From Verrucomicrobiales bacterium (GTDB taxonomy: Bacteria > Verrucomicrobiota > Verrucomicrobiia > Limisphaerales > JACDHS01): DNA of 61,163 nt. The stretch spans positions 1 to 61,163 of the forward strand of contig JAQGOU010000251.1 of NCBI GenBank assembly GCA_028293445.1. The letters are read 5' to 3'. Position numbers and translations under genes: made by a program. Shown here in pieces: positions 744-56,775 of this stretch (its first letter is position 1; each line of letters starts with the position of its first letter). Under the pieces are notes generated by a model that was not told the origin of the DNA, did no database searches, and saw nothing but the letters and a program-made list of their open reading frames with translations.

Positions 744-1096
744 TATTCAGCTATAAGGCCGAGCCAATAATATTATTGGGTCTTTTTTAGCTTCTAAATC
801 CGACCCTATATTATTATTGGGTCCGTTTTAGCTTCTAAATTGGAGCCAATATTATTATTGGATGCATTTTAGTTCCTAGAACGGACCCAATATTAATATT
901 GGGTGCCTTTTAGCTTCTAAATCCGAGCCAATATTATTTTGGACTCCGTTTTAGCTTCTAAAATGGACCCTATATATTTATTGGCTGCGTTTTAGCTTCA
1001 AAACTGGAGCTTATATTATTATTGGGTGCCTTTTAGCTTCTAAGTTCGACCCAATATTAATATTCGGTGGGTTTTAGCTTCTAAAAACTATCCTGC
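744..1096. repeat. Tandem array 1: about 8.5 copies of a 41-bp unit (TTTTAGCTTCTAAA - variable - AATATTATTATTGG - variable)
   Basis: TTTTAG anchors at 785, 826, 867, 908, 949, 990, 1031 and 1072 are exactly 41 bp apart, with a degenerate copy near 744. Each unit carries two dyads: TTTTAG-CTT-CTAAAA and an AT-rich palindrome (perfect 20-mer ACCCAATATTAATATTGGGT at 885-904). Intergenic. Confidence 0.95.
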
Positions 1097-1198
1097 AACC
1101 TTCGGGACCAGAGTTTGTGTCCAAATTATGAAAAAGGAAAAATGCGCCTATCCTCTCGGGGAATGAAATCTTTCGGACGGTAAAATACCTGGAAACGA

Positions 1199-2596
1199 TC
1201 ATTTCCCCAGTTCGAGACAGACCAAATGATCTTCGCTGCGGAGATAGAGTTTTTTATTGGCGAGCACGGGTGCCGCCCACGTTGGATAATGTAATTGCGG
1301 GACTTGCCAGCGGGACAGTTCCTCGACCTTCTGCGGATTGGCTTTGAACAATCCGAGCAACCCACCCTCCCCCATCACGATCAGTTTTCCGTCGGCGAGG
1401 ATCGCTGAACCGCGTCCGTAAACATCCGGCTGCGCGGCGCTGTGTGGGGACCAATGCTCGTCGCGATCCCACATCAGTTTACCGCTGGCAAATTCGACGC
1501 AACGAAAGCGCGCGTCGGGTTCATTGCGTCCGCTGAATCCGAAGAGAAAACCATCCTGAATGATCGGCGTGGTGAAATGAATTTCCAAAACGAGACTGCG
1601 CCAGAGCTCTTCAAATTTTTGTTGCGCATTGATCTTCAATAGCACCGAACCATTGCGATAATAGGAACTGGAAATCATGACTTTGTCGCCCACAACAACA
1701 GGGTTCGCGGCATTCACCGATTCCTCAACGCGCGCGCGATACCAAAAGCTATCGTCAACCACGCCGGTCTTTGGGTCCAACATGACGAGTCCCTGACGCA
1801 TCAAGCAAAAGGCGCGACGTTTGCCGTTCACCGTGGCGAGCACGGGGGTCGCATAGCTCGCCTGCTTTTCAGAAGTTTTCCAGGCAACCTTTGTTTCTTC
1901 ATCCGCTTTTCGTGAGAGCGAAAACTTTTCCGACGGCTGGCGTTGTTGATAGGAATCGGTGAAGCCCAGCATCGGTTTGCCGGTCCAATTTTTTTCACCG
2001 ACACTTTCCCAAATGGTTTTTCCAGTCTTCGCATCGAGGCCCACGACACCGGAATTCGGTTGTCCGCCGATCATGACGAGAAGCAAATCACCTTCGAGCA
2101 CCGGCGTGCTGCCGACGCCAAAGAACGCTTCAGGAATATCCCATTCCCTGGCCGTGTTCCGTTGCCAAACCAGTTTACCGGTCGCCAACTCCACGCAGCT
2201 CAGCATTCCTTCGGCGCCGAAGGTGTAGCAGAATTTTTCTGCGAGCAGCGGCGTGCAGCGTGGACCGTTGTTGTAGCCGAACGGATCTTGAAATTTGCTT
2301 GGGTATGCGTAGCGCCACACTGCCTTGGCACTTATCGCGTCAATGCATTCGAGGACTTCCTCGTCGGCGACTCGATGAAAGAGAATGAGCTTTCCGTCGC
2401 GGATTGAAGGCGCGCTGTAGCCGGTGCCAATTTGTTTTTCCCAAACCAGCTTCGGTCCGCTCTCAGGAAATTTATCGAGCAACCCGGTCTCAGCGGAGAT
2501 GCCGTTACGATTGGGTCCAAGGAATTGCGGCCAGTCATTTGCGAGCAGGGAGTTGACGGCTAAAAGAATCGCGACAATAGAAAAGGACTTTTTCAT
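1199..2596 (-). CDS. Secreted PQQ-like (BamB-type) beta-propeller repeat protein
   Basis: ORF track 1199..2638 starts at TTG. The ATG at 2596 gives the signal peptide MKKSFSIVAILLAVNSLLA, then NDWPQFLGPNRNG and repeated G/W-rich blades (VWEKQIGTGYSAPSI, GKLVWQR, GKTIWES, GKLMWDR) typical of PQQ-like propellers. Confidence 0.8.
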   Translation of the reverse strand: MKKSFSIVAILLAVNSLLANDWPQFLGPNRNGISAETGLLDKFPESGPKLVWEKQIGTGYSAPSIRDGKLILFHRVADEEVLECIDAISAKAVWRYAYPSKFQDPFGYNNGPRCTPLLAEKFCYTFGAEGMLSCVELATGKLVWQRNTAREWDIPEAFFGVGSTPVLEGDLLLVMIGGQPNSGVVGLDAKTGKTIWESVGEKNWTGKPMLGFTDSYQQRQPSEKFSLSRKADEETKVAWKTSEKQASYATPVLATVNGKRRAFCLMRQGLVMLDPKTGVVDDSFWYRARVEESVNAANPVVVGDKVMISSSYYRNGSVLLKINAQQKFEELWRSLVLEIHFTTPIIQDGFLFGFSGRNEPDARFRCVEFASGKLMWDRDEHWSPHSAAQPDVYGRGSAILADGKLIVMGEGGLLGLFKANPQKVEELSRWQVPQLHYPTWAAPVLANKKLYLRSEDHLVCLELGK

Positions 2597-2766
2597 CGAT
2601 GAGGTCTTGAGAGATAACAGATGGGGAATAAACACCAAACATCAAAAACCAAACACCGAAAATAAACACCAAGATCCAAACATAAATACCAATCCGCGAG
2701 AAATATTTGAATCTCGGGACTTTTCCGTTTTCAGTAGTTCGTTGAAAACGTTTTTTTCGGGCTCTA

Positions 2767-3576
2767 TCAAAGTCCTTGGATGCGGATATTGCGCCAACGA
2801 GCTTTTGTTCCTGCGGGCCAGGCCGCCTTGCCACCATGAACCTGCAAACCGATAGAACCTTTGGCTCCGAGCACGCTGAACACCTTTTCCTGGTTGTAGT
2901 CGGGCAGGGAACAGGTTTCGCCGTTCCAGTGGCAAATTTTGACGCCATTAATCCACGTCGTGATTTGCGGGTGTTTACCGATGCACCGGATGCGCGCGGT
3001 ATTCCAATCGTTTAACCGCCACGTTTTAATCCACTCCTCCGGTCCACAACTGTATTCATAAACACCTTTCGGCCAATGAGCGGCGCGCGGATCGGGTTCC
3101 GTAGTAAACCGTTTTGGTTTGCCGTCCGCGCCGAGGGTGGCCTGAATCTGAAACGGTTTCATGGCAAAGTTCCCCGGCATTTCACCGCGTAGATGTCCGA
3201 CATTTCCGCCCTGGTGGTAGTCGACGTACATCTGGAAGCCGTGGCCTTCATCGGTGCAGCGAAAGAAGATTCCGGTGTCCGGTCCCCAATCGGGATTGAT
3301 ATCGATGGTGAGCTCGAAGTCTCCAAATTTCTCGTCGGTTAAAAGCATTCCGCCGTTACCGGAACCCGGAGGATCCTGTTCACAGATCAACAAACCGTCT
3401 TCAACCGTCCAGCTTCCGCCGGTGCCGTGCCCGATCTTTTTCGGGGGCTTGTGCCAGCCTTTGAGCGATTTCCCATCAAACAGTGATCGCGTTTCCGCCG
3501 CAGCCCACGAGGCGGGAGTGATCGCGGCACTGGCAACGGCACAGGTTCCAATAAAGTGGCGTCGAGTGATTCTCAT
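2767..3576 (-). CDS. DUF1080 (3-keto-disaccharide hydrolase-like, concanavalin-fold) protein with a Tat-type signal
   Basis: ORF track 2767..3906 has a 110-aa Arg/Ser-rich junk extension that would run past the stop of the upstream gene. The ATG at 3576 gives MRITRRHFIGTCAVASAAITPASWAAAE, then LFDGKSLKGWH..GSWTVEDGLL..GMLLTDEKFGDFEL..NSG(I)FFR-like motifs and a C-terminal RWRNIRIQ, which is typical of DUF1080. Confidence 0.8.
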   Translation of the reverse strand: MRITRRHFIGTCAVASAAITPASWAAAETRSLFDGKSLKGWHKPPKKIGHGTGGSWTVEDGLLICEQDPPGSGNGGMLLTDEKFGDFELTIDINPDWGPDTGIFFRCTDEGHGFQMYVDYHQGGNVGHLRGEMPGNFAMKPFQIQATLGADGKPKRFTTEPDPRAAHWPKGVYEYSCGPEEWIKTWRLNDWNTARIRCIGKHPQITTWINGVKICHWNGETCSLPDYNQEKVFSVLGAKGSIGLQVHGGKAAWPAGTKARWRNIRIQGL

Positions 3577-3701
3577 GGTGAAGAGTTCATCTTTCGGAGG
3601 AGATCCTTCTCTGTCGAGAAGTTTCAAGGCGGGAAAGGTTGACGACCTGGCAACGCGAGCGTTTCCGCAACAATCTCGTCCTGACTGAAATTGCGATGGA
3701 A

Positions 3702-4490
3702 TCAGGGAATGGTTTCTTGAACGCGAGTCAGGTCGGGATCGCCCACGGGCGCTGGCACATTGATGGCGACTCCGGCTGCGGCTTGGCCGACTCCAATGGC
3801 GAGAACACTCGTCCCTTTCCACTTCCAGATAATGGTATGCCCGTCGGCAAAGGACCCGCCGCACGCCTTGTTGTGGGCGCTTCCAGGCAGATTCCACCAT
3901 ATCCACGTTCCCGCTGGCCGAATGCCAATCATGCCGTTGTCGATGCTGCGAGGATCTTCTTCCCAGAATACAGAAGCCTGGCTTGGGTTGGGACGTTGAA
4001 TGGCCGTCTCTTTGACAAATGAGGTCGGATAGATGGCGGGATCACCACCCATCGTGTGCGTCATGGCGTAGGATCGGGTTCTCGGAATGCCGTTGGGAAA
4101 TGTGGCATTGCCCGCGGTTCGAGATTTGTCAGCAGGACAAACGTAAATCTTAACGTTCGGATTATATCTGAAGAGCATTCCGTTTTCGATGTTTGTGGTG
4201 TTCATATCCAGCTTGGGATCTCCGACCACCCAGGAATCGGCGAAACTGGCGGTCGAACTGCCGTGGTTCGGGACCAGAGTATCATTGTTATCGGCGGAGT
4301 ACATGTGCCAACCGAGCTGGAGTTGTTTCAGATTGTTCATGCAGTTGATGCCGAGCGTGCTCGATTTGGCTTTGCTCAGTGCAGGCAAAAGCATCCCCGC
4401 CAGGATAGCGATGATGGCGATAACGACGAGCAGTTCAATCAACGTAAAGCCATGACACTTCTTTTTTGACGGAAGGGATAAATTCTTCAT
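3702..4490 (-). CDS. Prepilin-type N-terminal cleavage/methylation domain protein with an H-X9-DG motif (DUF1559-like pseudopilin)
   Basis: ATG at 4490 (the track start at 4511 is TTG). N-terminus [38 protein letters not shown]; the C-terminal [13 protein letters not shown] fits H-X9-DG. It starts 17 nt after the stop of the giant LamG gene. Confidence 0.85.
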
Positions 4491-4507
4491 ATGGGTCCTC
4501 TGCTGTC

Positions 4508-7500
4508 TCAAGGTTTATGCAGGCGATAGAACCGGCTTCCTGCCGCACTGTTGATCGTGAATTTGTTCGTGCCAGCAGCGGTAGTGATGGAATTGGTGAC
4601 AGCCACCCAGTTCGTTGGAGACAGACTTAACGTCGTTTCCAGAGCAAGCGTAAGCGGTGTCACGGGCCAGGCCAGATCTATATTGGTTCCTGTGGTTTGC
4701 ACAGAGAGGGAAATGGGTGAGGCGAGGATTGCATACTTGTTAGCGACGTAGCTATCGAGTAATTGCCGTTCCTGATCGCTGAGCGCCGCACTGAAGATAA
4801 GTATCTCCGCCATGTCGCCGTTCATCTTCGGTCTCAGATCGTAACGAGTGCCGATGCCCAGTGGGTAACCAGAGTCAGCAATTGTCGTCACGATTGTTCC
4901 GGTGCCATTGGTGGCCCCGTCGAGATAATGTGTGACACTTGTGCCACTCATGACGACCGACAACGCATGGAGCGAATTCGTCCCCGGAGCGGACAGTCCG
5001 ATCACCGAACCATTGACCAAGCCGTTGCCTCGATAGAACTTCGGAAGGCCGGTAGTCTTGTTCAAGTAATAATCGTAAGGACCAGGTTGATTCCACGCCG
5101 CCCCGCCGGACTTACCCACCAGCCCAATCTCATTGGCCGTCGAAGTGAAGTCTTTGATCCGGACAACCGTGTAGATCGTCATGTCTCCCGTAATTTGCAG
5201 ACTCGGGTCATTACCCGCGAAAAGGTATTGCGTAGTGCCATCGAAGTTTACGACTGGAAGACCACTAAATCCGTTCGTCGTGAATAGCGGAGCCGGATTG
5301 CCAGAGAGCGTCGCCGCATGATTGGCATGGCCGGATTGATCCGTCCATTGAGTGACCAGGTTTTGGCCGTCCGCAGTCACACCAGCATCTGCTTTCAACC
5401 ACAACGCCAGCGACGCGGGATAAACGCCGAGCGCCGTGGGACTCGAGACAATCGCATTGCCAAAGAGATCTTTCACATTCTGCACTGTGAGGGAATACGA
5501 AGTCGGTGGGTTCAATCCTGACACGGTAAGAATCACCTGGTTCGGTGCGTCTCCCATGACCGCAGCCGTAACCACTGCTCCATTGTCCAAGGTGTAATTG
5601 GCAATGTTGGTGGCGAAGGACGGGTCCACCGCTTCAGAAAATGTGACCACCAATTGAGTCTGGTTCCATAATTTTAACCTGGCAGAAACAACCGTCGGTG
5701 GGACCGAATCACCAGTAACCGTCAGCGTAGCGGAGTCACTATTCGTCGTGGTTCCGTCCGGGAGGAAAATCACCGCGCGATAACCGGCGTTGTTGTCTCC
5801 GGTCGTCAAAGCAGGTGTGGTGTAAGTCAAACTGGTGGCGCCGGGAATGTTGGAGAGATTTTTTTGCCATTGATAATTGAACGTCGCAGGTCCAGCCGCC
5901 GCGGCGACCGTAAAGGTGGCGGTTTCTCCTTCCAGTTTCGCAACGCTTTGCGGCTGGGTTGTAATGCTGAAGGGGAAATATTTAAAGCCGAGATAGGAAG
6001 CAAGGGCCTTGCGTTCCACGGTGGAAATCGCGCTGCTGAACACCAGCACTTCGGCGATGTCCCCTTTCATGAATTGATCGAGGGCATCGCGAGAGCCAAT
6101 CTTTAATGGACGCCCGGCATCGGCTATCGTAGTGGAAAGATTGCCGGTGCCGTTCGCCAACCCGTCGAGGAAATGGCTGACATTGGTCCCAGCCATGACA
6201 GCGGTCATGATGTGCGGCACACCAGCAGAGGGGAGAGCCGATGCCAACACACGCGCGTTCACCGTCCCATTTCCACGATAGAGCGGCATCCCGTTCGCAC
6301 CATTGTTAATATAATAGTCGAATGGTGCAGGAAGGTTGGCGGTCGTTTTGCTAATCAATTGCCGCACCGCGCCAGTTGGCAGATCGGTCATTTTGGCTAC
6401 AACGACAATCGAAAGATCACCCGTAATGGCAAGGCTCGGCGTGGACACCGCTTGAAGATAGTTGCTCGCTCCATCGAAGCTCAAAACAGGCTTGCCGTTC
6501 ATCGAGACGGAAGTCCAGGTCGGACGTAACATCGTCAATCCATACTGTTGCGCATGGTTCGTGTTCCCGGATTGATCGTCCCATTGGTTCACGAGACCAG
6601 AAGCATTGGTGGAAACCCCCGAATCCGCCCGCAACCAGATCGACATGCTGGAAGGAAGAATAGAGATCGTCTGCGGAACCATGGTGTTCGCAGCAAGGTC
6701 CTGAATATTTTTCACCGACAATAAGTAGACCGTGTTGGTGTCGAGGATAGATGTCGTGAGAATAACCTGACTGGAAACACTTCCGACGGTAGCCGCGGAA
6801 ATTGTTGCGCCCTGATTGAGCGTATAATTGGTTAAAGTCGTTGCGGTGCCGGCGGTGACTGGCTCAGAAAAATTCACGATGACGTTCGTAACGTTTCCTG
6901 CAGCTTTCAGCGCGGAGGAAACGATCGGAGCCTGAGTATCCGCATTCACCGTCAAGGTGGCGAACGCGCTATTCGTGCTGATCCCGAGTGGCGTTGAAAC
7001 CACGACGCGGTAAGTAGAGGCATTGTTCGTCAAAGCAAGAGTGGGCGTAGTGTAAATAGAATTCGTGGCACCAACGATATTGTTCGTTCCCTTCTGCCAT
7101 TGGTAAAAGATGGTTGGGGTACCTGCCTGCGCGGTGACAGAAAACGTTGCGGTTTGGCCAACCATTCTCGTGGCATCCTCTGGCTGCGCAAGGATCCCGA
7201 GCGCGACAACCGAGATCCCATACTTGGCACCGAGATAGTTCTCGATGGTGGATTTTTCTGCGTCTGAGACTGCACCGCGAATGACCATTGCTTCAGCCAT
7301 GTTGCCCACAAACTTCGTGGCGTTATCCTGCCGAATCCCGAGTCGAATGGGATTTCCGCGATCAGCGAGTCCCGTAAGAATCGGCCCTGACCCATTGAAA
7401 TTGCCATTCACATAACTGGAACCGTTGGTTCCATTCACAACGACGGAGAGCAAATAGAATTGATTCGCGACGATCCCGGCTGTGCTGGGGAATGAGTTGA

Positions 7501-9595: not shown

Positions 9596-9600
9596 GAAAA

Positions 9601-20398: not shown

Positions 20399-20408
20399 AT
20401 AGCGTAGC

Positions 20409-20609
20409 GCCGGTTTCCAAACGGGCTTGCGGCGAACTAACTCCCAAACTGTTGATTCTATGTTCATTCCTTACGCAAAGCCGGTTGGAAACGGGCGCTT
20501 CGCCGGAGCGCGGCCGGAGCGCCGACTTCCAAGTCGGCTTTCGACGCACGAATTACCGTAATGCACGTTTTCTCTTCATCGTTAACCCTAAGCCGGTTTG
20601 GAAACCGGC
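20409..20609. repeat. Cluster of four 17-18 bp palindromes of the form GCCG(G/A)(T/C)TT-SS-AA(A/G)(C/T)CGGC
   Basis: GCCGGTTTCCAAACGGGC at 20409, GCCGGTTGGAAACGGGC at 20480, GCCGACTTCCAAGTCGGC at 20521 (perfect) and GCCGGTTTGGAAACCGGC at 20592 (perfect). Spacings are 71/41/71, giving a 112-bp higher-order repeat. Confidence 0.85.
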
Positions 20610-20762
20610 GCTCCGCTCGGATAGCTCGCGGTTTGGGCGAACCTCGCTCGACGGGGCGTCTCTGGTCAGGCTTTCGGGGCTCAAAATTTCGGGAAAACAC
20701 CCTCGCCGGACCGAGCGGCGCGGAAGGAACTTCGGGAAGGAGGAATTGAGGTGCTTTTCGGA

Positions 20763-21140
20763 CGAAAAAGTTGTCGGAAAGTCGTCTCGGGATCGGATTT
20801 CCCGCCGCAGGGGAGGCGGGAAGTAGACTCGGGCGACCCTCCGGCGCTCCTCGGGAGGGTCGACCGAGTCTCGGGTGACCCTTCCGGACGTCTAAAAATC
20901 GGATCGGGAGTCTCCGAATCGACTTTCCCGCGGCAGGAAAATCGATTCCGAGCTTAAAACCGGCATTTTGGGGTCGGAAAACCCGTTTTTAGTCTCCGGG
21001 TCGAGTTTCCTGCGGCGGGAAAAGCGATCCCGAGTCTCCCAGGAGCCTTCCGGACGTCCAAAAAATCGATCCGGAGTCTCCCTCCTGCCTCCGGCGAAGC
21101 GCCGGAGGGTCGACCGAGTCTCAGGGAGGAAATTCAAAGC
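20763..21140. repeat. Tandem array 2: about 9 copies of a 42-bp unit built on CCGAG-T-CTCGG / CGGAG-T-CTCCG dyads and TTTCC-N6-GGAAA dyads
   Basis: G(T/A)CTC anchors at 20784, 20826, 20868, 20910, 20952, 20992, 21034, 21076 and 21118 (spacing 42, once 40). Mosaic sub-unit types recur at about 168 and 250 bp. Long hairpins are present, e.g. CGACCCTCC..GGAGGGTCG. Confidence 0.9.
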
Positions 21141-34528: not shown

Positions 34529-34750
34529 GGGAAGACTCTTTTCAATTTCAGGCGGCAAATCAAGAGCTGAGCAATGGCCACGTCCGTTGCGTCCGAACGG
34601 CTGAGAGCCTTGGGGAACGGGCAACTTCAAAGCTTGTTTGAGTATTTACCAAGGCATCGTGCTGGGAAGAGTTTCAGACCACCGTTACCGATAAAGGAGT
34701 TTTGGATGCCATTTTGAGCCCAATATCACGGCGGCCTCAAAAAGCCGCCT

Positions 34751-35143
34751 GTTTTTAGACTGGAAATCCCGTCAAAAAATTATTCGTCGGGATTTCCAGA
34801 GTGAAAATGGCGACAAAAAATTAAACCGGCACTTTTCCAGAGTGGAAATACCGTCGAAAAATTAAACCGCCTCATTTCCAGAGTGGAATTCCCGTCAAAA
34901 AATTATTTATCGGGATTTCCAGAGTGGAAATGACGGCAAAAAATTAAACGGGCACTTTTCCGGAGTGGAAATCCCGCCGAAAAATTAAATCGCCTCATTT
35001 CCAGAGTGGAATTCTCGTCGAAAAATTATTTATCCGGATTTCCAGAGTGGAAATGGCGACAAAAAATTAAATGGACACCTTTCCGGACTGGAATTTCCGA
35101 CAAAACATTTTTTATTTCCATTTCCGAAGTGAAATCGGGTGCG
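34751..35143. repeat. Tandem array 3: about 10 copies of a 41-bp unit (ATTTCCAGAGTGGAAAT + CG-flanked A-tract AAAAAATTAAA) with a 123-bp (3-unit) higher-order repeat
   Basis: CC anchors of TTTCCAGAG at 34796, 34837, 34878, 34919, 34960, 35001, 35042, 35083 and 35124, all exactly 41 bp apart. Three unit subtypes recur in the order C-A-B-C-A-B-C-A-B-C. Confidence 0.95.
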
Positions 35144-35434: not shown

Positions 35435-38092
35435 CTAATTATTCACATACGATAATTCCGTCCAGTTTCCACCATCCCAAATCAACGTCAGCGTATCACC
35501 CAGTCCCAACAGGCGCGACGCTGCACCAAGCTGGGTGTTGGCGCCGTCCGGTACAGTGACTGTGCCAGTAATATTGCCGCCTTGGAGAATCAAAATGCTG
35601 CCGGTAGCAGCGCCATTGGCAATCGCGGTCGTTGCGTTCAGAGTGACAGCCGTTGAACCGGAAAAGAGAACGTAACCGGTAGTGGGTGTCAGGGTAGCGG
35701 TATTGGTCGGAGACATCGAGGTGCGCGAGACGATCGGAAACCCATTGATAGTCACGTTGCCGGCGAAGGTTTCGGCGCCGTTATTCATGGCAACATTGGC
35801 GGAAAGGCGGCCATCGGCAATGGTTCCGATTAAATTAGTCGCGTTCAGATTAGTCAGACCGCCGGCGTTCCCGGTGAAATTGGTGCCCGTGATTCCGCCG
35901 GCACTGAAGCTGCCGCCCGCATCACGCTTTACAATTGTATTGGCCGTATTTGCGCTCGTCGCCGCATTGGCCGCGCTCGTGCCGCTCGCCACGTTCGCCG
36001 CAGTTTGTCCGCCCACGGTTGCAACCACTGTCGCTCCCTGCGTCCCGGTCACGTTACCACTGAGCGAACCGGTGAAATTGGCGGAGCTGACATTGGTCAA
36101 ACCGCTGCCATTACCGACGAAACTACCCGCCGTGAGAATTCCGCTAATGTTCAAGGTCGAGCCGGTGAAGTTGCCTTGCAAAGTGGCCGTGGTGGTTACT
36201 GTCGACAGCGTGTTGAACAATACCGTCATTGTGCTGTCATTATAATTGGCGCTGATTAAATCCACGTTGTTGTCGCCATTGACATCCGCAGCCAGGACTA
36301 AACGCGGGTCATCGCCGACGGTTGGTGAAGAGGCCAGCGTAAATCCGCCGACACCGTTGTTCGTAAACACAGAGAGCGTGTTCGCATTGGCGCCAATCAA
36401 GTCCACCTTGCCATCGCCGTTGACATCCGAGGCCGTGACCGGAGAACCCGCACTAAACGTGGAGTTCGATCCAAATGTGCCGCCACCATTGTTAGTCAGC
36501 ACCAGGACATTGTCGCCGAGATTGACACTGACCAAATCCATCTTGCCATCGCCGTTGACATCCGCGGTTGTGACCCAATTCGGGAAAGTCCCGATGACTG
36601 GAGAGGAATGAAGCACAAAGGTGCCAGTGCCAGTGCCAAACAATACTGAAAGGGTGTTGGAACCGTAATTCGAAGTGATCAAGTCAATTGTAGTATCTCC
36701 ATTGAGATCCGCCGCCGCCACGGAACTCGGGCTACTGCCGACAGTGGGCGAGGAGGCCAGCACAAAGATACCACCGCCTTTGTTGGTCAACACCGAGAGC
36801 GTGTTCGTGTTGCCATAGGAGCAGATTAAATCCATCTTGCTATCGCCATTCACATCCGCCGCTGTGACAGAATTGGGGAACGCCCCGACAGCCAGAGAGG
36901 AAGCTATCACAAATCCGCCGCTGCCGTTGTTGGTCAGCACGGAGAGCGTGGCAGCGTTGAAATTGGCACTGATCAAGTCCACCTTGCCATCGCCATTGAC
37001 ATCCGCCGCCGCGACCGAGTTCGCACCGGTGCCGACAGTTGGCGAGGATGCCAGCACAAATCCACCGCTCCCGTTATTCGTCAAGACCGAAAGCGTGTTG
37101 CCTGAAGCATTGCCAAAGTTTGCGCTGATCAAATCCACTTTGCCGTCCCCATTGACGTCCGCAGCTGCAGCCCAAACCGGACCAGTGCCGACGAGTGGCG
37201 CGGAGGCGATGGAAAAGCCCAATCCACCAACGGAGTTGGTGGTCAGAGTAATCGCATACGCAGGCAGAGCCGTCATCAGATTCACATTGGTCAGGCCTGC
37301 GCCGTTGCCGCTGAAATTTCCCGTGATTGTGCCCGCTGAGATGTTTCCAGATCCGTCGCGTTTCACAATCGTGCCGGGCGTGTTCGCGCTCGTCGCGGCG
37401 TTGGCTGCGCTCGCTCCGCTGGCCACATTCGCCGCGCTTTGTCCACCCACGGTCGACACCACAGTCGCTCCCTGCGTCCCGGTCACATTGCCAGCGAGCG
37501 AACCAGAGAAACTGGTGGCGGACGTCGCCGTGGTGGCGTTGCCGCTGATGTTGATATCTGCCGTGCCACTGGAAATGTTGCCTGCGTTCAAGGCAGTTAA
37601 TCCCGCGCCGTTGCCGGAAAACGAATTCGCCGTAACCGTCCCCGAAACATTCGGGCTGGCTGGCAGACTCGCATTGGCAATCGTCCCGCTCAACTGCGAC
37701 GCAGCCAATGTTCCCGTAAGAGTGGCGGCCGCGACCGCGTACGGCGTAGCGGTGATTTTCTGGCGTGGCGTCAGCGTCGTGAATCCGCCCGCGCCATTCG
37801 TCCGCACAGAAATTTCCAACCAACGGTCCGCTCCCGGAAAAGCGCCCACACCAAAATCCAAAGAAGCGGTGAAAAGGCCGTTCGTCACAGCAACCGCCGT
37901 GCTCGTGAGCGTGCCACCAATTTGGTTTCCGGCGCTGAGAGCATCCTGCAACGAAAATTGTAAGTCGTAGTTTCCGCTCGCTGCCGCGCCGTTGGCGTTT
38001 AACCGGCCTTGATAAGTAAACGCTGTTGTTTGGGCGTGGACAGTCCCGCAGAACAGAGATACGAGCAGGACCTGGAGGATTTTAGTTTTCAT
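35435..38092 (-). CDS. Secreted FG-GAP/VCBS repeat (integrin-alpha-like propeller) protein flanked by tail-fibre-like Gly/Ala/Thr-rich segments
   Basis: Signal peptide MKTKILQVLLVSLFCGTVHA, then FTYQGRLNANGAAASGNYDLQF. At least 7 repeats of A(A/T)DVNGD(G/S)K(V/M)DLI(S/C). Two about 70-aa segments, GNVTGTQGATVV.TVGGQ.AANVASG.SAANAATSANT..TIVKRD..G..SAG.ITG, lie before and after the propeller. Confidence 0.8.
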   Translation of the reverse strand: MKTKILQVLLVSLFCGTVHAQTTAFTYQGRLNANGAAASGNYDLQFSLQDALSAGNQIGGTLTSTAVAVTNGLFTASLDFGVGAFPGADRWLEISVRTNGAGGFTTLTPRQKITATPYAVAAATLTGTLAASQLSGTIANASLPASPNVSGTVTANSFSGNGAGLTALNAGNISSGTADINISGNATTATSATSFSGSLAGNVTGTQGATVVSTVGGQSAANVASGASAANAATSANTPGTIVKRDGSGNISAGTITGNFSGNGAGLTNVNLMTALPAYAITLTTNSVGGLGFSIASAPLVGTGPVWAAAADVNGDGKVDLISANFGNASGNTLSVLTNNGSGGFVLASSPTVGTGANSVAAADVNGDGKVDLISANFNAATLSVLTNNGSGGFVIASSLAVGAFPNSVTAADVNGDSKMDLICSYGNTNTLSVLTNKGGGIFVLASSPTVGSSPSSVAAADLNGDTTIDLITSNYGSNTLSVLFGTGTGTFVLHSSPVIGTFPNWVTTADVNGDGKMDLVSVNLGDNVLVLTNNGGGTFGSNSTFSAGSPVTASDVNGDGKVDLIGANANTLSVFTNNGVGGFTLASSPTVGDDPRLVLAADVNGDNNVDLISANYNDSTMTVLFNTLSTVTTTATLQGNFTGSTLNISGILTAGSFVGNGSGLTNVSSANFTGSLSGNVTGTQGATVVATVGGQTAANVASGTSAANAATSANTANTIVKRDAGGSFSAGGITGTNFTGNAGGLTNLNATNLIGTIADGRLSANVAMNNGAETFAGNVTINGFPIVSRTSMSPTNTATLTPTTGYVLFSGSTAVTLNATTAIANGAATGSILILQGGNITGTVTVPDGANTQLGAASRLLGLGDTLTLIWDGGNWTELSYVNN

Positions 38093-40047: not shown

Positions 40048-41319
40048 ATGAAATGGGGAATGAAACAAACTGGGGCTGCCGTTTTCTTTTGCCTGCTTAT
40101 TACCCTTTTCGCCCAGCAGTGGATCGTCCGGTCGCCGGATAATTCGCCGACAGTTTCTACGAATCAGGTCCGGATCGCGTTGCCACGTCCCGCTAAAATC
40201 AGGGCGCCTCAGCTCGTTCCGGCCGCAAGTATGGAAGCCGAGGATTCCGAGCCGAAAGCCATCAATCACACGCCACTTCCAAAAGCTCCGGTCGTCGCCG
40301 TTGAGACCCATCCGGGAGCTGAGCCGCCCGCAGAATTACTTGAACGCGCAAGAAATGGGGAAGCCAGCGCTCAACGTGATCTGGGCAAATTTTATAATGA
40401 CCATGGAAATATCGAAGAAGCCAACGTCTGGTATGTAAAAGCCGCTGAGCAAGGCGACGCTGAGGCCCAACGGATCATGGGCATCCGCTATACCTTTGGA
40501 CAAGGAGTGGAACGTGACATGAAGGAAGCCGGCAAATGGTTTTTGCTCGCCGCACAACAAGGCGATGTCATTGCTCAACGTGAACTCGGAAAAGTTTATG
40601 GCGACCAATGGAAGTATACCGAATCGAACGAGTGGTATTTGAAAGCGGCCCTGCAAGGCGACGCCGAGGCGCAACGCATCCTGGGACTTCGTTACACCAT
40701 CGGCCAGGGCGTCGCGAGCAATCGTGAAGAGGCCGTGAAATGGTTTACCATGGCGGCAAACCAGGGCGATCCCGTCGCGCAACGGGAACTGGGAAAATAT
40801 TACGGCGAGAAATGGCAGCTTCCAGAATCCAACGAATGGTATTTGAAAGCTGCCTCGCAAGGAGACATCCGGGCGCAGCACATGATGGGTGTGCGTTATA
40901 CTTTCGGACAAGGCGTGGAACGCAATATCGAAGAGGCCGGCAAATGGTTTCTGCTTGCCGCCGAACAAGGCGACGCGCAGTCGCAATACAGCATCGGTTT
41001 GCGTTGGGCTCGTGGTGAAGCAGGCGAACCGAAGGATTTTGCGGAAGCCGCGAAATGGTTCCGACTCTCCGCTGAACAAGGTTTGGACGAGGCGCAACTC
41101 CGTCTTGGCCAGCGCTACGCTGAAGGCAGCGGCGTAAAACAAGATTTCGTTGAAGCCTATAAGTGGCTGACGCTCGCGCAGACTCAGGGAAAAGTGCAAG
41201 GCGCGGGAACTTTTCTGGACACGATCCGACCGCAGATGACACCAGAACAAATTGCGGAAGCACAGGAGCAGGTGAAGGCATTCGTCGCAAAGCCACCGGC
41301 TCCGATCAAACCGCAGTAA
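40048..41319 (+). CDS. Sel1-like (SLR/TPR) repeat protein with an N-terminal anchor
   Basis: At least 7 repeats of the pattern (A/S)(E/V)AQ..LG..Y..G.GV..(D/N)..EA.KW(F)..AA.QGD. The track start at 39967 is TTG; ATG at 40048 (MKWGMKQTGAAVFFCLLITLFA) or 40060. Confidence 0.85.
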   Translation: MKWGMKQTGAAVFFCLLITLFAQQWIVRSPDNSPTVSTNQVRIALPRPAKIRAPQLVPAASMEAEDSEPKAINHTPLPKAPVVAVETHPGAEPPAELLERARNGEASAQRDLGKFYNDHGNIEEANVWYVKAAEQGDAEAQRIMGIRYTFGQGVERDMKEAGKWFLLAAQQGDVIAQRELGKVYGDQWKYTESNEWYLKAALQGDAEAQRILGLRYTIGQGVASNREEAVKWFTMAANQGDPVAQRELGKYYGEKWQLPESNEWYLKAASQGDIRAQHMMGVRYTFGQGVERNIEEAGKWFLLAAEQGDAQSQYSIGLRWARGEAGEPKDFAEAAKWFRLSAEQGLDEAQLRLGQRYAEGSGVKQDFVEAYKWLTLAQTQGKVQGAGTFLDTIRPQMTPEQIAEAQEQVKAFVAKPPAPIKPQ

Positions 41320-45325: not shown

Positions 45326-45420
45326 AAGCTTGCCTGAATCGAACGCTCGGATAGGGAGCGCGTCAGCCCGAAGTTCCGGAAGTTGCATCACGCTAAGGTC
45401 GTAGTTTCTATGACCGAAAA

Positions 45421-46028
45421 GGACGTACAACGCGTTGTACGTCCTAAACCTGCGGTTCGAAATCGGGGTACAACGGCTCTGGAGCAAAAAAGGACGATCG
45501 GAAAACAGGGTACAAGCCTCCTGGACCAATTTTCTATTCCCGGAAACTCCCGTACAAGCGTTGTACGCCCGTTTCCGGTTGTCGGAAACTACGGTACAAG
45601 CGTTGTACGCCAATTTTCCGGAATCCGAAATCGGGGTACAACGCGTTGTACGCCTCAAAACTGCTCCGGAAAATTCCGGTACAAGCATTTTCCAGGAAAT
45701 TTGGTTGTCCGGGAAGAGCGTACAAGCCTTGTACCCTCTTTCTGAACTCCCCGGAAGTGGGGTACAACGCGTTGTACGTCATTTTTCTTTCCAAAAGTTA
45801 TCCTTTTTCGTTGTACCCTCTTTTCCTGGCACGTAACTTCGGTCCATAAGGCTTGTACGGGAGTTCCGGACAACCGGAAAGTGGCGTACAACGCTTGCAC
45901 CCTCATTTCCCGGAAGAATTTTTCCTGGAAAATGCTTGTACCGGAATTTTCCGTGACGGATTTTTCACGTACTTCGCGTTGTACCCTGTTTTCCGACGCC
46001 AGATTTTCCGCGTACAACGCGTTGTACC
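45421..46028. repeat. Tandem array 4: about 15 copies of a ~42-bp unit (GTACAACGCGTTGTAC palindrome + TTTCCGG..CCGGAAA dyad)
   Basis: GTACAA (or inferred) anchors at 45425, 45468, 45510, 45552, 45594, 45636, 45679, 45720, 45762, ~45801, ~45843, 45886, ~45926, 45969 and 46012 (mean 41.9 bp). Perfect 24-bp palindrome GGACGTACAACGCGTTGTACGTCC at 45421-45444. Confidence 0.95.
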
Positions 46029-46273
46029 TTTTTGCAGGAGCTTGATTTGCTACGAGTTGCAGAGAAAAGCCCGGATTCCTTCGATGTTTTCCACGGAATG
46101 AATGTAACTCTCGCAGTCGCCGACGGGCAGCACGGCGGGACAGCGCTCCCCTCCCCAACCTTGCGTCCGACGGGAAAGGAGGAAGAGAAGCATGGTATTC
46201 CTGCTGGCTCTTCGTTGTAACGTTTTCTGTCAGTCTCGTGTCTGAAGCGAACAACGGATGCTATTTGAACTTT

Positions 46274-52083: not shown

Positions 52084-53469
52084 CTAACTTCTCAAATACG
52101 CGCCCTTTGCCACCAGTTCATCGCGCAATCGGCATACGTTTACCTTCGCTGGCGATACATTATCACGCACACACATTTTCGCGGCGCGTCCGGCAGCTTC
52201 GCCCATCGCCATGCAGGTCGCCATGACACGGATTGCTCCCATCGCTTCGTGCGTGGTGGAAATACAACGGCCCGCGACCAAGAGGTTATCTACTTTCGTC
52301 GGGACGAGTGAACGGTATGGGATGTCGTAACAATCGCCGCACCAGATTAACGTGCAGCCTTCGTCCCCCGGACGATGGATGTCGATCGGATAGCTCGCGA
52401 CCGCGATGGCGTCGTCGAATTTGCGACAGCCTAAAACATCTTCCTGCGTCATCACGTATTGGCCGACTATGCGGCGCGTTTCGCGAATGCCAAGGAAGGG
52501 CGCAGTCTTGGTGAAATAGGATTTCTCGAAGCCTGGCACGTAGTCTTTCAGGTACGTATAGATGTCGTCGATCTGGTGACGTGCTTCTATTTCACCCATC
52601 GAAAGACTGCGCGCATCCGTACCGTCCACGCCGGCGACGCGTGTCATGTTCAACCACGCTTCACCCTCGCGCAAGCCGGTGATGATGATCGTGCGTTCGT
52701 TCGGAATCTTCAGACCTTTTTCCGCACGCGCCTTCGCGATGAGTTCGCGCAGGCCGACGACAATGAACTGATTGTTCTGGCCGAAATATTCTGCCGGAAT
52801 GAAATCGGTGAGATACGTGCGCGTTTGATTGGCGATGCTCATGCGCAGCTTCTCTGTGTCCACGCCTGCGAGACAAAACATGAGGGTGGGCGGTTGCATC
52901 CCGCCTTTCTCGTTCCCCTTCTCGCACGGCACACCGGAACGGAACGCAACGTCGCCGTCGCCGGTGCAGTCGATCACAATTTTAGCGAGCACCGCTTCGC
53001 GCCCACTTTTACTTTCCGTGATGATCCCTTTGATTGTATCGCCGTCCATGACTACTCCAGCGCAGGCGGTGTAAAACGTTACATCAACGCCGGCTTCCGT
53101 GAGCATTTCGAGTGCAACGGTCTTCACCGCTTCCGGTTCCACCAAAGTGATCCCCATGTGTAACGGGCACGGACGATGTTCGCTCGCGCCTTTGCGGACC
53201 TTGAGGCGGTCGATGAATTTTTGCGGCAGACCTTTGATGATCTGGTTTCCTTTTTGACCGAGGAATCCGAGGATCGGCAGACCGATGGTCATATTGCCGC
53301 CGAGAAAACTTCGGCTCTCGATCAAGCCGACTTTCAAACCGTCCTCAGCTGCTGCGAGCGCGGAGGTCAGCCCCGCCGGACCGCCGCCTACAACAAGAAC
53401 ATCGTATTGCGCGCGAACGGGAATGGTTCTTTGTGGCTCTGTAATAGAAGTCATTGGATTCTGTGACAT
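52084..53469 (-). CDS. FAD-dependent oxidoreductase (FAD_oxidored/PF12831-like)
   Basis: YDVLVVGGGPAGLTSALAAAEDGLKVGLIESRSFLGGN dinucleotide-binding motif; about 460 aa. Confidence 0.8.
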   Translation of the reverse strand: MSQNPMTSITEPQRTIPVRAQYDVLVVGGGPAGLTSALAAAEDGLKVGLIESRSFLGGNMTIGLPILGFLGQKGNQIIKGLPQKFIDRLKVRKGASEHRPCPLHMGITLVEPEAVKTVALEMLTEAGVDVTFYTACAGVVMDGDTIKGIITESKSGREAVLAKIVIDCTGDGDVAFRSGVPCEKGNEKGGMQPPTLMFCLAGVDTEKLRMSIANQTRTYLTDFIPAEYFGQNNQFIVVGLRELIAKARAEKGLKIPNERTIIITGLREGEAWLNMTRVAGVDGTDARSLSMGEIEARHQIDDIYTYLKDYVPGFEKSYFTKTAPFLGIRETRRIVGQYVMTQEDVLGCRKFDDAIAVASYPIDIHRPGDEGCTLIWCGDCYDIPYRSLVPTKVDNLLVAGRCISTTHEAMGAIRVMATCMAMGEAAGRAAKMCVRDNVSPAKVNVCRLRDELVAKGAYLRS

Positions 53470-53487
53470 ATAAAGTGTTCGTCGGAA

Positions 53488-54369
53488 TTACAACTCGACC
53501 ACGGCCGAAACAAAGTAATGGTCGCTCGGATAATGACCGTTGCGCCCATCGCGGATCACCGCGGCGGCCAGCGGCTTGACCGCACCGCGGCAAAAGATCC
53601 AATCGATTTTCTTATGCGGCGCAGCTTTCGGCCCGCGGAAACCGTGAAACGTCTGTCCCGGGTCCTTCCCGGGATTTGCGGCGGCAAAAGTATCTACCCA
53701 GCCTCCTTCGGTGAAATTGGTGATGGCCTGATTCTCAATACCTGCGTTCATGTCGCCCGTGAGTATTTGTGGAAACTCTTTGGGCAAGACGTCGCTCGCC
53801 TGCACGATCAGTGCCGCACTCTTCGCGCGAGCTTGTTGTCCCTTGTGATCGAGGTGGGTGTTCCAATATCGGAATTCTTTTCCGGAACTGCGCTCCTTGA
53901 GATCGACCCAGTTGACGAGACGCGGAAGGGCCGAATCCCACGACTTAGCGAACGCAATATGCGGCGTTTCCGAGAGCCAGAATCCACCCGCGGAAATCAA
54001 TTCGTACCGTGAACGCAAAAAGAAAATGGCATTGATCGGATGAAAGGTTGTCGGGAAATACGACAGCGCGTAAGTGTCGTATTCCGGCATGCGACTTTTC
54101 AAATCTTTCCAGTGTATCTCCTGAGCTTCCTGCAACCCGAAGAGATCGGCCTTCTGCGCTTTGATAATGTCGGCGCACATTTCTTTGCGGTGCTTCCAGC
54201 CGTCGCCGGTTTTGCTGTCGGCAGGCACATCCACGCGGACATTGCACGTGAGAACTTTGTGTGTGCTCACTGTTTTCTTGAGGGCGCTGTCATCGGCACG
54301 CAAGGATTGCGCAAGATTCGGCAACGCTGCGACAAGCCCGATTGCTTTGATAAAGTTTCTTCGTTTCAT
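53488..54369 (-). CDS. Endonuclease/exonuclease/phosphatase (EEP) family protein with a Tat-like signal
   Basis: MKRRNFIKAIGLVAALPNLA; FGLQE; NTHLDH; GDMN; C-terminal YPSDHYFV. Confidence 0.8.
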   Translation of the reverse strand: MKRRNFIKAIGLVAALPNLAQSLRADDSALKKTVSTHKVLTCNVRVDVPADSKTGDGWKHRKEMCADIIKAQKADLFGLQEAQEIHWKDLKSRMPEYDTYALSYFPTTFHPINAIFFLRSRYELISAGGFWLSETPHIAFAKSWDSALPRLVNWVDLKERSSGKEFRYWNTHLDHKGQQARAKSAALIVQASDVLPKEFPQILTGDMNAGIENQAITNFTEGGWVDTFAAANPGKDPGQTFHGFRGPKAAPHKKIDWIFCRGAVKPLAAAVIRDGRNGHYPSDHYFVSAVVEL

Positions 54370-54370
54370 T

Positions 54371-55633
54371 TTAGGAAAAGGAGGATGCAGGAACTAACAC
54401 AGGTTTGGGTTCGGCAGGTTTCTCCGGTCGCACCATCGTCCAGAGAACCACCATGGCGAGAGGATGCAGCAGCGCCATGATCGCAAAAATTTGGGGAGCA
54501 CCGACGGTCTGCATCATTTTACCAACGTAGGTATTAAAGAGTATGGCGCCCGCCGTTCCAAAGCCGGCCGTAATTCCCATGACACTACCGATATTGGCGG
54601 CCGGAAACGTTTCGGCAATCACGACGCTCATACTAAATAACCAACTGAGGCAAACAGCGCAGACGATGCTGAACAGAATCAGCGTCACGACGGCGTGTGG
54701 CAGATGTGGAGTCAACGCGCAAACAGGTGCGCAGAGCGCAGTAACGGTGAGCATGATTTTGCGGGCGCGAAGCGGTTCGGTCCCGCCTTTCACCAAACGA
54801 TCAGACCACGCCGCGCTTCCGATCCCGCCGATGTCGGCGACGAGAAACGGGATCCATCCATACATGCCAATTTGTTTGAGCGTCAGGCCGGAATTTTCCT
54901 GCAAATAACCAGGCAACCAGAACAAACAAAAATACCAGACCGGATCGCTGATGAAACGGCAGAGCAGAATTCCCCACAAACTGCGGGTGCGCCAGAGTTG
55001 CGGCCAGGTGAACGCCTGGGTCGCAGCGTTGTCGCGGATCGACTGCGCAGCGATTTCAACCGGCGGATCGCGATAGATGAACCACCAGAGAACGGCGACT
55101 CCAAAGCCGATAACGCCGGGGATAACAAACGCGAGATGCCAATTGAACTTGAGCGCGATCGACGCGACCAACGGCGGCGCCAGAATCGCCCCAATCGAAC
55201 CGCCCGACACACACAGGCTGTTTGCCGTGGCGCGCATCGTGCCCGGACACCAGATCGTGATGGCGCGCAATTGCGCGGGATAGGCCAGCGGTTCCGCCAT
55301 GCCGAGCATCCCACGGAAAAATGCGAGTTGACCGAACGTTCTCGTGAGCCCTGCGCCGAGGCACGCCGTCGACCAGCCAATAATTCCGGTGAGCATGACT
55401 CCACGAGTACCGAAACGATCGACGAGCCAACCCGCGACTGGATACATGCCGGCGTAACAGATGGCGAAGACGTTCACGAGCCTGGCGTATCCGCTGTCAT
55501 CCAGGCTGAATTCCGTTTTCAGCGTCGGTTTGAGAATCGAAACAATTTGGCGGTCGAAGTAATTCAGCACCATCGCCCCGAAAATCAGCGCGACGATGAA
55601 CCAGCGACGTCGGGATGGAGTGAGGAACGACAT
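54371..55633 (-). CDS. MFS transporter (anion:cation symporter/hexuronate-like subfamily)
   Basis: 12 predicted hydrophobic spans. N-terminal RRRWFIVALIFGAMVLNYFDRQ and GWLVDRFGTRG are typical of the ACS family. Its stop lies 1 nt from the EEP start. Confidence 0.85.
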   Translation of the reverse strand: MSFLTPSRRRWFIVALIFGAMVLNYFDRQIVSILKPTLKTEFSLDDSGYARLVNVFAICYAGMYPVAGWLVDRFGTRGVMLTGIIGWSTACLGAGLTRTFGQLAFFRGMLGMAEPLAYPAQLRAITIWCPGTMRATANSLCVSGGSIGAILAPPLVASIALKFNWHLAFVIPGVIGFGVAVLWWFIYRDPPVEIAAQSIRDNAATQAFTWPQLWRTRSLWGILLCRFISDPVWYFCLFWLPGYLQENSGLTLKQIGMYGWIPFLVADIGGIGSAAWSDRLVKGGTEPLRARKIMLTVTALCAPVCALTPHLPHAVVTLILFSIVCAVCLSWLFSMSVVIAETFPAANIGSVMGITAGFGTAGAILFNTYVGKMMQTVGAPQIFAIMALLHPLAMVVLWTMVRPEKPAEPKPVLVPASSFS

Positions 55634-55648
55634 GCGCAGAACCGGTCT

Positions 55649-56143
55649 TTAGACAGGTTTGGCGAGATACGGCTGTAACGCAGCAACCATATCTTCTGGA
55701 GCGCGCTTTGGTTTTTCGTTGAGGCTCGTGCAGACATGCCACGTCTCCCCTTCGAGGAGCAACTTCCCGTCTTGATTCAGAATGCGGTAGCCAAAGTTAG
55801 CGCGGATTTTTCCAAGCTCAGTCAGCCAGGCTTCGATTGTCAGCAAATCATCGTAGCGCGCGGGCGCTTTATATTTCAGATGCACTTCGACGACCGGGAA
55901 AATCATGTCGGCCTGCTGAAGTTGCAACGCGGTCTTGCCGATCTTGCGCATAAACTCGCCGCGCGCTGCTTCGAGCAGGTCCAAATAACGAGCGTAATAG
56001 ATATGGTTGCCGACCGTGCATTCCGCGTAGGTGACGCGATGTTGGTATTGGAAAATCTCGTGCACACCCGAATTGTGTGTTTCGCCAAATGAAAGTCCAG
56101 AATTTCGTTGCGGAATAATTATTCTTATTCGTGAATTTCTCAT
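55649..56143 (-). CDS. Acyl-CoA thioesterase, YbgC/4HBT hot-dog fold
   Basis: HRVTYAECTVGNHIYYARYLDLLEAARGEFMR..G......QQADMIFPVVEVHLKYKAPARYDDLL. The N-terminal 35 aa are uncertain. Confidence 0.75.
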   Translation of the reverse strand: MRNSRIRIIIPQRNSGLSFGETHNSGVHEIFQYQHRVTYAECTVGNHIYYARYLDLLEAARGEFMRKIGKTALQLQQADMIFPVVEVHLKYKAPARYDDLLTIEAWLTELGKIRANFGYRILNQDGKLLLEGETWHVCTSLNEKPKRAPEDMVAALQPYLAKPV

Positions 56144-56262
56144 GTCCCTGCCACCCGACCGATTGGCAAGCTGGCGAACGGAGAAGGTCCCTTACTTTTA
56201 GTGATTGTGGAGGAAATTGAGCTGAATTTGCGTAAGCTGCTGGCTGACAGTCTTGTAAAAAC

Positions 56263-56775
56263 GTCTGGTAACGTTACCAGACCGGAATTCCAGCCTGACA
56301 TTGAGGGCTGGTAACGTTACCAGACGCTAAATCCACTCTGGAATTTCCGTCCGTAATATTACGGACGGTTTTTCCAGCCTGAAAATTGACCTTCTAACGT
56401 TAGAAGGTCGATTTTCAGGCTGACGGAGACGTCTGGTAACGTTAGAAGGGTCCAAATCCACTCTGGAATTTTGGTCGGGTAACGCTACCACCTCAATTTT
56501 ACGCTGAAAACGGGGTCCGTGGCGTAACTTGCGGAATTTCCATTCCGTAAACGGCGTCTGGTAACGTTACCAGACGCCAATGTGAGGCTGGAATTTCGGT
56601 CCGTAACGTTACCAGACGGTTTTTCAGGCTGGAATTTGACCCTTCTAACGTTACCAGGCCTCTTTTCAGGCTAACATTGGAGGCTGGTAACGTTAGAAGG
56701 TCTAAATTCCAGCCTGGAAATCCCGCCCGTACCGCTACCACATGCTTTTCCAGATTGAAAAAAGGGTCGTTACTG
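56263..56775. repeat. Tandem array 5: about 12-13 copies of a ~42-bp unit (CTGGTAACGTTACCAG-type palindrome + TTCCAG-C-CTGGAA-type dyad)
   Basis: AACGTT-type centres at 56270, 56313, 56355, 56396, 56438, 56481, 56526, 56563, 56605, 56647, 56689 and 56731. Perfect palindromes: GTCTGGTAACGTTACCAGAC (56263-56282), CCGTCCGTAATATTACGGACGG (56347-56368) and GACCTTCTAACGTTAGAAGGTC (56388-56409). Confidence 0.95.

Follow-up and report, generated by a model that had tools for sequence, protein, structure and literature searches.

Five intergenic arrays of 41-42 bp hairpin units in a Verrucomicrobiales contig: a candidate repeat family that resembles REP/BIME elements without fitting them

Why would 61 kb of bacterial DNA carry, between its genes, five arrays of short palindromes that differ in sequence from one array to the next and still repeat with nearly the same period? 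We addressed this question for contig JAQGOU010000251.1 of a Verrucomicrobiales bacterium (assembly GCA_028293445.1; order Limisphaerales, Pedosphaera-like), the 61,163 nucleotides of which are hereafter called the window, starting from an earlier note that had described five sequence-unrelated intergenic arrays built on one blueprint: a 41-42 bp period with two alternating dyad-symmetric elements. The best-supported reading of the sequences is that the five arrays would be members of one homologous, lineage-specific non-coding repeat family. This family resembles the REP/BIME hairpin repeats, yet it does not fit among them when judged by the tag that REP hairpins carry, and its function is unproven.

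Periodic DNA was located with Tandem Repeats Finder and a lag-identity scan of the window, and its non-coding part came down to the five arrays only, which together make up about 4% of the window. Array 1 (764-1091) has 8 units in an exact 41-bp register, each composed of TTTTAG-CTT-CTAAAA and CCCAATATT(A/T)ATATTGGG and about 70% reverse-complement symmetric. Array 2 (20778-21135) counts about 9 units of 40-42 bp, which belong to three types and follow each other in the mirror order A C B A x A B C. An exact 41-bp register is also kept by the roughly 9 units of array 3 (34757-35130), each consisting of ATTTCCAGAGTGGAAAT and a CG-flanked A-tract. Array 4 (45425-46040) is made of about 15 degenerate units of 41-43 bp containing GTACAACGCGTTGTAC and TTTCCGG..CCGGAAA, and array 5 (56263-56770) of 12 units of 41-43 bp, with palindromes (NNNNTAACGTTANNNN) of three arm types and an old duplicated block of 6 units. 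Palindrome anchors in arrays 2, 4 and 5 are spaced 40-43 bp apart; together with Tandem Repeats Finder and a print of the register, this spacing bears out the claim that there are five arrays with periods of 41 or 42±1 bp. The window also holds two coding tandem repeats, one of 147 bp within the gene of an FG-GAP/dockerin protein (36750-37099) and one of 108/204 bp within a Sel1-repeat gene (40230-41150), both of which are ordinary protein repeats, as well as a short A/C-rich, microsatellite-like tract (AAACACC; periods 7, 14 and 20) at a gene junction (2630-2692).

That the arrays might themselves be coding repeats was rejected, since stop codons occur in every frame of every array and the unit length fluctuates between 41 and 43 bp. 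No open frame runs across any of them and all five lie, as the earlier note had it, in intergenic DNA, flanked on both sides by open reading frames (ORFs) with Pfam support. These flanking ORFs are ordinary chromosomal genes of the Planctomycetota-Verrucomicrobiota-Chlamydiota (PVC) group (BamB-like, Nnr, FG-GAP, M14 peptidase, sulfatase, thioesterase, Hsp20 and Lon), and the gene context varies, the arrays being found 3' of genes as well as between neighbours in tandem or in divergent arrangement.

The strongest sign of kinship between the arrays lies beside them. The head box of array 1 (+ strand, 723..762, TGAATGTGCGTAAGTTGCTGATATTCAG...) is about one unit long, ends right before the first long palindrome and is found by nhmmer with E = 5e-7, and that of array 5 (+ strand, 56223..56262, TGAATTTGCGTAAGCTGCTGGCTGACAGTCT...) was recovered by regular expression, by alignment and by nhmmer. 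The two boxes are identical at 18/20 positions (copy at 56223-56242) and stand at an equal offset from the first long palindrome of their array. A 41-bp array from another genus (locus L199, with a Lon protein 86% identical to that of the window) has this box at one of its ends too, there in opposite orientation. Only 6 matches to the pattern GC[AG]TAAG[CT]N10CAG occur in 2.1 Mb, 3 of them at arrays, while an nhmmer profile of the head box returned only the three array-linked copies in 2.2 Mb, with E about 1e-7. Array 4 may have a degenerate head box as well (+ strand, 45379..45398, GAAGTTGCATCACGCTAAGG), but this candidate is weak, with a partial alignment only, and was missed by nhmmer. A conserved tail sequence was looked for at the arrays and none was found. 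The one-sided box of array 1, array 5 and the L199 array points to arrays that are polar at one end and that have in common either ancestry or a requirement. Conservation is much stronger in the head than in the units, which argues that the head matters to the element.

A second shared feature is found inside the units: the short dyad TTTYCA-N3-TGRAAA is common to most arrays, including arrays 3 and 5, those of the related loci L199 and L012, and those of the metagenome loci L080, L125 and L154. Within a unit, this T-rich/A-rich dyad flanks a longer palindrome, which is a different one in each array. Its variants within this genome (TTTTAG/CTAAAA, TTTCCAG/CTGGAAA and TTTCCGG/CCGGAAA) differ in both arms. 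Arrays 3 and 5 moreover have eight 11-mers in common, the shared words being 11-14-mers. The arrays can be called sequence-unrelated at the k-mer level only, and not where arrays 3 and 5 share these eight 11-mers or where arrays 1 and 5 share the 18/20 flank box. Independent convergence of unrelated sequences is not supported by these comparisons, and the shared head box and short dyad instead indicate common descent. A likeness of the short dyad to DnaA boxes, Noc/ParB half-sites and CodY boxes was set aside, as the spacings differ.

Is the period itself a property of the family? In related genomes, the 74 loci that surround nnr (1.2 Mb in total) were scanned without period bias, and non-coding arrays proved to be rare among them, with a 42-bp and a 41-bp array at L021 and a 41-bp array at L012. 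With the five arrays of the window and that of L199, nine non-coding arrays of the order were thus found without such bias, and 9/9 have periods of 41-42 bp, which upholds the proposal of a shared and constrained geometry. The arrays are not conserved at orthologous sites. The nearest genome in the species collection has an Nnr that is only 67% identical, and no array was found at the position of array 2, upstream of nnr, in any of the 74 loci. The closest relatives by Lon, L197 (89%) and L198 (88%), keep the order thioesterase, small ORF, hsp20 and lon but lack array 5, with an intergenic length of 530 bp and 413 bp, respectively, at a site that measures 1039 bp in the window; array 5 is also absent from the same thioesterase to hsp20-lon site in the more distant relatives L207-L209. 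Arrays are gained or lost between genera.

Array 5 also offers a lead on how this may happen. A 12-bp direct repeat, GGAAATTGAGCT, has its left copy (+ strand, 56212..56223) abutting the head box and its right copy (+ strand, 56909..56920) in a conserved promoter-proximal region that is common to L197 and L198. Between the two copies lie the head, array 5 and a 133-bp tail, and this entire block is absent from the closest relatives; the direct repeat that brackets it is a lead for insertion, not proof. The window contains no solitary units, and no 11-mers are shared outside their own array beyond chance within its 61 kb.

Similar arrays were also detected outside these genomes by a metagenome scan that required two short dyads 39-44 bp apart and that, its spacing being imposed, is no test of the period. 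It yielded about 25 true arrays, some of which have a 20-21 bp period and the dyad alone, while others (e.g., L080, L125 and L154) have a period of 41-43 bp and combine the dyad with a private or variable palindrome. Four metagenome loci, L077, L147, L172 and L141, carry long, highly homogeneous arrays of 14-19 units with periods of 41, 42, 43 and 42 bp, respectively, which contain TTYCAGnnTGRAA and show little dyad symmetry; these may represent a wider class of ~42-bp satellites. A phage origin was rejected, as the dyad-pair pattern matched one coding sequence only in IMG/VR.

How are the units built? Whole-unit reverse-complement identity is 0.59-0.73, linkers included, which in arrays 2, 4 and 5 is more than the identity between direct repeats. 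Tandem repetition of a palindromic unit inevitably places a dyad centre at every half period and hence two in each period, so that the alternating dyads of the earlier note are one property and not two: the dyads are present as described, but they largely follow from the symmetry of the whole unit and are not separate features. Defining a good palindrome as one with 8-bp arms and at least 7/8 positions paired, we found good palindromes in 5/8, 6/15 and 5/12 units of arrays 1, 4 and 5, respectively, compared with 2.5% of random positions; palindromes of 16-22 bp occur in 40-60% of units, against the same 2.5%. Arms are perfect in 5/12 units of array 5 and 2/8 units of array 1, and are just 5 bp long in array 2. 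Covariation of palindrome arms within arrays, which the earlier note had put forward, turned out to be weak, with 77% of cells pairing in array 5 versus 73% in shuffles. Either strand folds strongly and equally well (z-scores of -6 to -18) and can form a string of successive hairpins, and in array 3 a stable second hairpin is missing from two of the three unit types.

The dyad centres are about 20-21 bp apart, which is compatible with their placement on the same face of the helix. Each unit contains three A/T-rich patches, which recur about every 14 bp, and the dominant A/T and AA/TT harmonic in arrays 3, 4 and 5 and in L199 is the third (~13.7-14 bp) and not the fourth (10.25-10.5 bp). A geometry of four helical turns with all elements on one face is therefore compatible with the spacing of the dyads, but phasing of the A/T tracts with intrinsic curvature is not supported in the four arrays.

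Above the single unit, the arrays show both direct and mirror symmetry. Array 3 contains a 123-bp (3-unit) higher-order repeat with 88-90% identity, a higher-order lag of 250 bp is seen in arrays 2 and 5, the latter being a duplicated 6-unit block, and the arrays of relatives show lags of 124 bp (the second L021 array, L021B) and 123 bp (L199); over this whole set, the higher-order repeats measure 123-125 or 250 bp. Array 2 as a whole is an imperfect palindrome of about 300 bp, centred near 20973, with mirror arms of up to 63 nt, and the two halves of array 4 mirror one another around a centre near 45726 with arms of up to 135 nt. Some units of array 5 have asymmetric, "hybrid" arms; these units are found in either orientation and pair with neighbours that are their mirror images, as in an 88-bp hairpin at 56627-56714; elsewhere orientation is mostly undefined, the units being nearly symmetric. 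Higher-order repeats of 3 or 6 units combined with long mirror symmetry therefore speak for growth by direct and by inverted duplication.

The comparison that comes closest is with REP/BIME elements. REPs are imperfect palindromes of 20-40 bp that form a stem-loop with an unpaired GTAG/CGTC at one end of the hairpin (PMC3733652, PMC2817692); they are dispersed in high copy number as singletons or doublets, are associated with a gene for a REP-associated tyrosine transposase (RAYT) that has the same repeats on its flanks, and alternate in orientation within clusters (PMC3733652, PMC2817692). The array units do qualify as stem-loops by their palindrome frequency and folding z-scores, but they have no unpaired GTAG/CGTC, the CGTC of array 5 belonging to the stem. 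Like REP/BIME elements, the arrays are regularly spaced clusters of short, hairpin-forming intergenic palindromes with lineage-specific expansion, and their inverted pairs fold into longer hairpins, as units 10 and 11 of array 5 do. Unlike REPs, which are one high-copy dispersed sequence, they have array-specific palindromes, run strictly head-to-tail at 41-42 bp for up to 15 units, include neither tagged units nor, in the window, solitary ones, and possess a conserved one-sided head box and 3-unit higher-order repeats.

Genuine REPs are nevertheless present nearby. Four G(T/G)AGCGCC-tagged REP hairpins (GCCGGTTTCCAAACCGGC type) at 20401..20617, arranged + - + - and hence as two REPIN-like doublets, directly follow the terminator of a gene for a 1303-aa Ig-domain protein, 160 bp from array 2. 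The earlier note had taken this cluster (20409-20609) for a relative of array 2, whereas its GTAG/GGAG tags place it outside the array family. Relatives L013, L021, L028, L051, L052 and L070 have this tag too, on hairpins that vary, and in two of them, L021 and L052, it lies on the flanks of RAYT genes. Neither Pfam searches of the 44 ORFs nor tblastn with the L021 RAYT revealed any transposase or RAYT in the window; the tagged REPs imply that a RAYT gene exists somewhere in this genome. The L021 gene (79-639) encodes a REP-associated tyrosine transposase by NCBIfam model NF047646 (85.3 bits against a cutoff of 80), with HUH and Tyr motifs, and is flanked by inverted GTAG-type REPs (gene and REPs at 1-700), not by array units, about 120 bp from the 42-bp array. 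A second RAYT gene with GTAG-tagged inverted REPs (L052, 17399-18140) is apparently inserted in a type I restriction-modification locus. Since REP doublets adjoin array 2 and a RAYT gene adjoins an array in L021, the likeness to BIMEs drawn earlier is a fair analogy. The 42-bp array of L021 (760-1090), downstream of this RAYT gene, has a structure of its own, with 8 units in which a constant part of 22 nt, TTTGCGGAAAnnnAAGTTAAC, is followed by a variable, spacer-like part of about 20 nt; the constant part resembles the core of the head box, TTTGCGTAAG, at 8/10 positions.

What, then, could these arrays be? We tentatively favour, with slightly less than even confidence, a new REP/BIME-like family of head-capped, hairpin-module minisatellites that acts at the level of DNA structure. 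According to this model, an array would be seeded in intergenic DNA together with its conserved head of about 40 bp, possibly by a RAYT-like enzyme with single-stranded hairpins as its substrate, and would then expand by 1, 3 or 6 units at a time through slipped-strand events or unequal recombination, as well as through strand-switch (inverted) duplication. Dyad symmetry would mainly be kept by templated correction of quasi-palindromes (template switching) and not by selection on each stem. The elements would behave as REP/BIME clusters do, as hairpin- or cruciform-prone structural DNA that is tolerated between genes only, and any effect on the host would be exerted through DNA or RNA structure, such as the insulation of neighbouring transcription units or the docking of proteins, and not through sequence-specific regulation. 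Several observations sit uneasily with this model. The window lacks a RAYT or transposase, and just 1 of about 10 arrays has one nearby; units carry no unpaired GTAG/CGTC tag and are not dispersed singly in the window. A head that is 90% identical beside unrelated units argues for selection on that head, and hence for some function about which the model says nothing. Descent and homogenisation are all that the model offers to account for the tight 41-42 bp period, and the 3-unit higher-order periodicity that recurs in several arrays is left without an explanation. Since tight period, conserved head and 3-unit periodicity are not explained, a machinery-driven reading was kept alive, although we judge it very unlikely: the arrays would be polar and leader-dependent, and their head would be recognised by a dedicated machinery (a hairpin-acting HUH/RAYT-like enzyme or a recombinase) that adds or copies hairpin modules of a fixed 41-42 nt beside it, often in 3-unit steps. 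Such a machinery would be a Cas-independent system for building arrays with a molecular ruler, with the arrays serving as docking tracks for a chromosome-organising protein.

Other explanations start from the same data. That the arrays are an artefact of assembly or sequencing, or chance periodicity, is scarcely credible: their length does rest on a single assembly and short-read assemblies break at arrays, contig L196 beginning inside array 5, but this contig is one of two SRR13312974 short-read contigs that are 100% identical to the window, and the window sequence is therefore real, such arrays being what breaks short-read assemblies. These independent Logan contigs match the flanks and the last ~1.5 units exactly, the structured differences between units (higher-order repeats, mirror order) are unlike artefactual collapse or expansion, and similar arrays are found in other assemblies (L199, L021, L012 and the metagenome loci). 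A more serious candidate, which we still consider doubtful, is that of phased binding sites for a dimeric DNA-binding protein of the centromere, iteron or nucleoid-protein type, with TTTYCA-N3-TGRAAA as the operator, a dyad every 2 or 4 helical turns, dimers that bind cooperatively on one face and a head that nucleates the complex. The short dyad is indeed the only unit element kept across arrays and genera, the head is conserved, and metagenome arrays carry the same dyad at 20-21 or 41-43 bp, but that search imposed both the dyad and its spacing of 39-44 bp and is hence no independent test. The geometry matches that of sopC of plasmid F, which consists of 12 x 43 bp, each repeat with a 16-bp inverted repeat bound by SopB and the sites phased on the helix (PMC3177203); sopC, iteron and parS arrays thus share with ours about a dozen direct repeats of ~43 bp that contain an inverted repeat (PMC3177203). 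They differ in that we see five arrays in 61 kb of chromosome, with distinct palindromes and wholly palindromic units that are absent from close relatives; neither a centromere nor an origin would be expected in such a number, or to be missing from most relatives. Moreover, both dyad arms vary within one genome, which is hard to square with one sequence-specific protein. Partition centromeres and iteron arrays are tandem binding sites next to the parAB or rep genes that use them, but neither these nor any other gene for a DNA-binding protein was found in linkage with the arrays, the flanking ORFs containing no ParA, ParB or Rep domains.

Could the arrays act as RNA instead? Transcription from the head might yield a non-coding RNA with many hairpins (a protein sponge or a precursor cut into hairpin units), or their units might be bidirectional intrinsic terminators, in which a GC-rich stem-loop has a T-run directly behind it on the transcribed strand, or stabilisers of RNA 3' ends, a proposal that we regard as unlikely. 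It gains from the conserved one-sided head, which could serve as a promoter or leader, from the strong folding z-scores and from the unit order of A-run, GC-rich hairpin and T-run; in the L199 array, a terminator scan found 5 sites against 1.1 expected, and 4 passing units are in head orientation. In the arrays of the window, however, the scan gave 0-4 sites per array against 1.1-1.8 expected, without enrichment in arrays 2, 3 and 4 and with barely any in arrays 1 and 5, and no sigma-70-like promoter was found at the head, nor were such promoters enriched in these arrays. The search against Rfam returned 0 matches at the gathering score in the whole window, the sub-threshold hits being generic miRNA-like hairpins on both strands, and a tRNA/tmRNA search of the window found nothing. 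Equal folding of both strands and reverse-complement-symmetric linkers are not required by an RNA, nor does the lack of a stable second hairpin in two unit types of array 3 fit one. The strand-specific, beads-on-a-string RNA considered in the earlier note is not favoured either, as both strands fold equally and the orientation of arrays relative to genes is not fixed.

Does any known system account for the arrays? CRISPR, in which repeats of 23-55 bp alternate with unique spacers of about the same length, usually together with cas genes, was rejected, since the arrays have a period of 41-42 bp without unique spacers and no cas domains occur in the 44 ORFs. The arrays do share with CRISPR a leader-like conserved head on one side and the degeneration of leader-distal units, but their period is too short, only the 42-bp array of L021 (L021A) has a variable part of 20 nt, and the window has no cas genes. 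Bacterial minisatellites or variable-number tandem repeats, such as the mycobacterial MIRUs, are like the present arrays in being intergenic, in repeating 40-100 bp in tandem, in differing from lineage to lineage and in evolving by slippage and unequal recombination. To our knowledge, however, MIRU-type repeats are not palindromic and have neither a shared head nor a cross-locus dyad nor a common period across sequence-unrelated loci. The earlier impression that no described family fits was confirmed in so far as none was found in Rfam or in the literature. The feature seen in the earlier note is real and unusual, and its geometry had been rendered correctly.

Odd palindromic arrays of regular build were what first drew attention to REP/BIME elements and, later, to CRISPR. 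A fixed unit of 41-42 bp with array-specific palindromes, a one-sided head and a recurrent 3-unit structure are not explained by current REP/REPIN models, and these three features suggest a generative mechanism that measures length or a structural constraint on DNA. Since such arrays break short-read assemblies, metagenome-assembled genomes of Verrucomicrobiota contain systematically too few of them. Strain typing could use members of the family as natural markers, and the way in which bacterial chromosomes tolerate palindromic DNA could be studied on them.

Several features beside the arrays deserve mention. Upstream of hsp20-lon, a conserved small ORF of 67 codons (56933-57136, VDSQTWQEVVALSIVALAASLLLWGKFRKRKYKLPCDTNCGCSG...), also present in L197, L198 and L209, encodes what looks like a Cys-rich single-pass membrane peptide. 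The promoter-proximal block ahead of this ORF and hsp20 (56880-56935, GGAAATTGAGCTATCTTAGCGCCTGTGG), of which relatives keep GAAAT..TATCTTACCCCCGTGG, is reminiscent of a sigma-32-type -10 element (CCCCAT-like). On the other side of array 5, a perfect 12-bp palindrome at 56113-56124, GAATAATTATTC, lies just upstream of the thioesterase gene and is conserved in L197 and L198, which makes it a candidate operator. The thioesterase itself probably starts further in than its longest ORF (55649-56143, 164 aa) suggests, relatives encoding 138 aa. Finally, immediately before array 3, a strong terminator-like hairpin on the plus strand (34730-34757; GGCGGCCTCAAAAAGCCGCC, then TGTTTTT) has no supported plus-strand gene upstream and may mark an unannotated small gene or small RNA at about 34590-34730.

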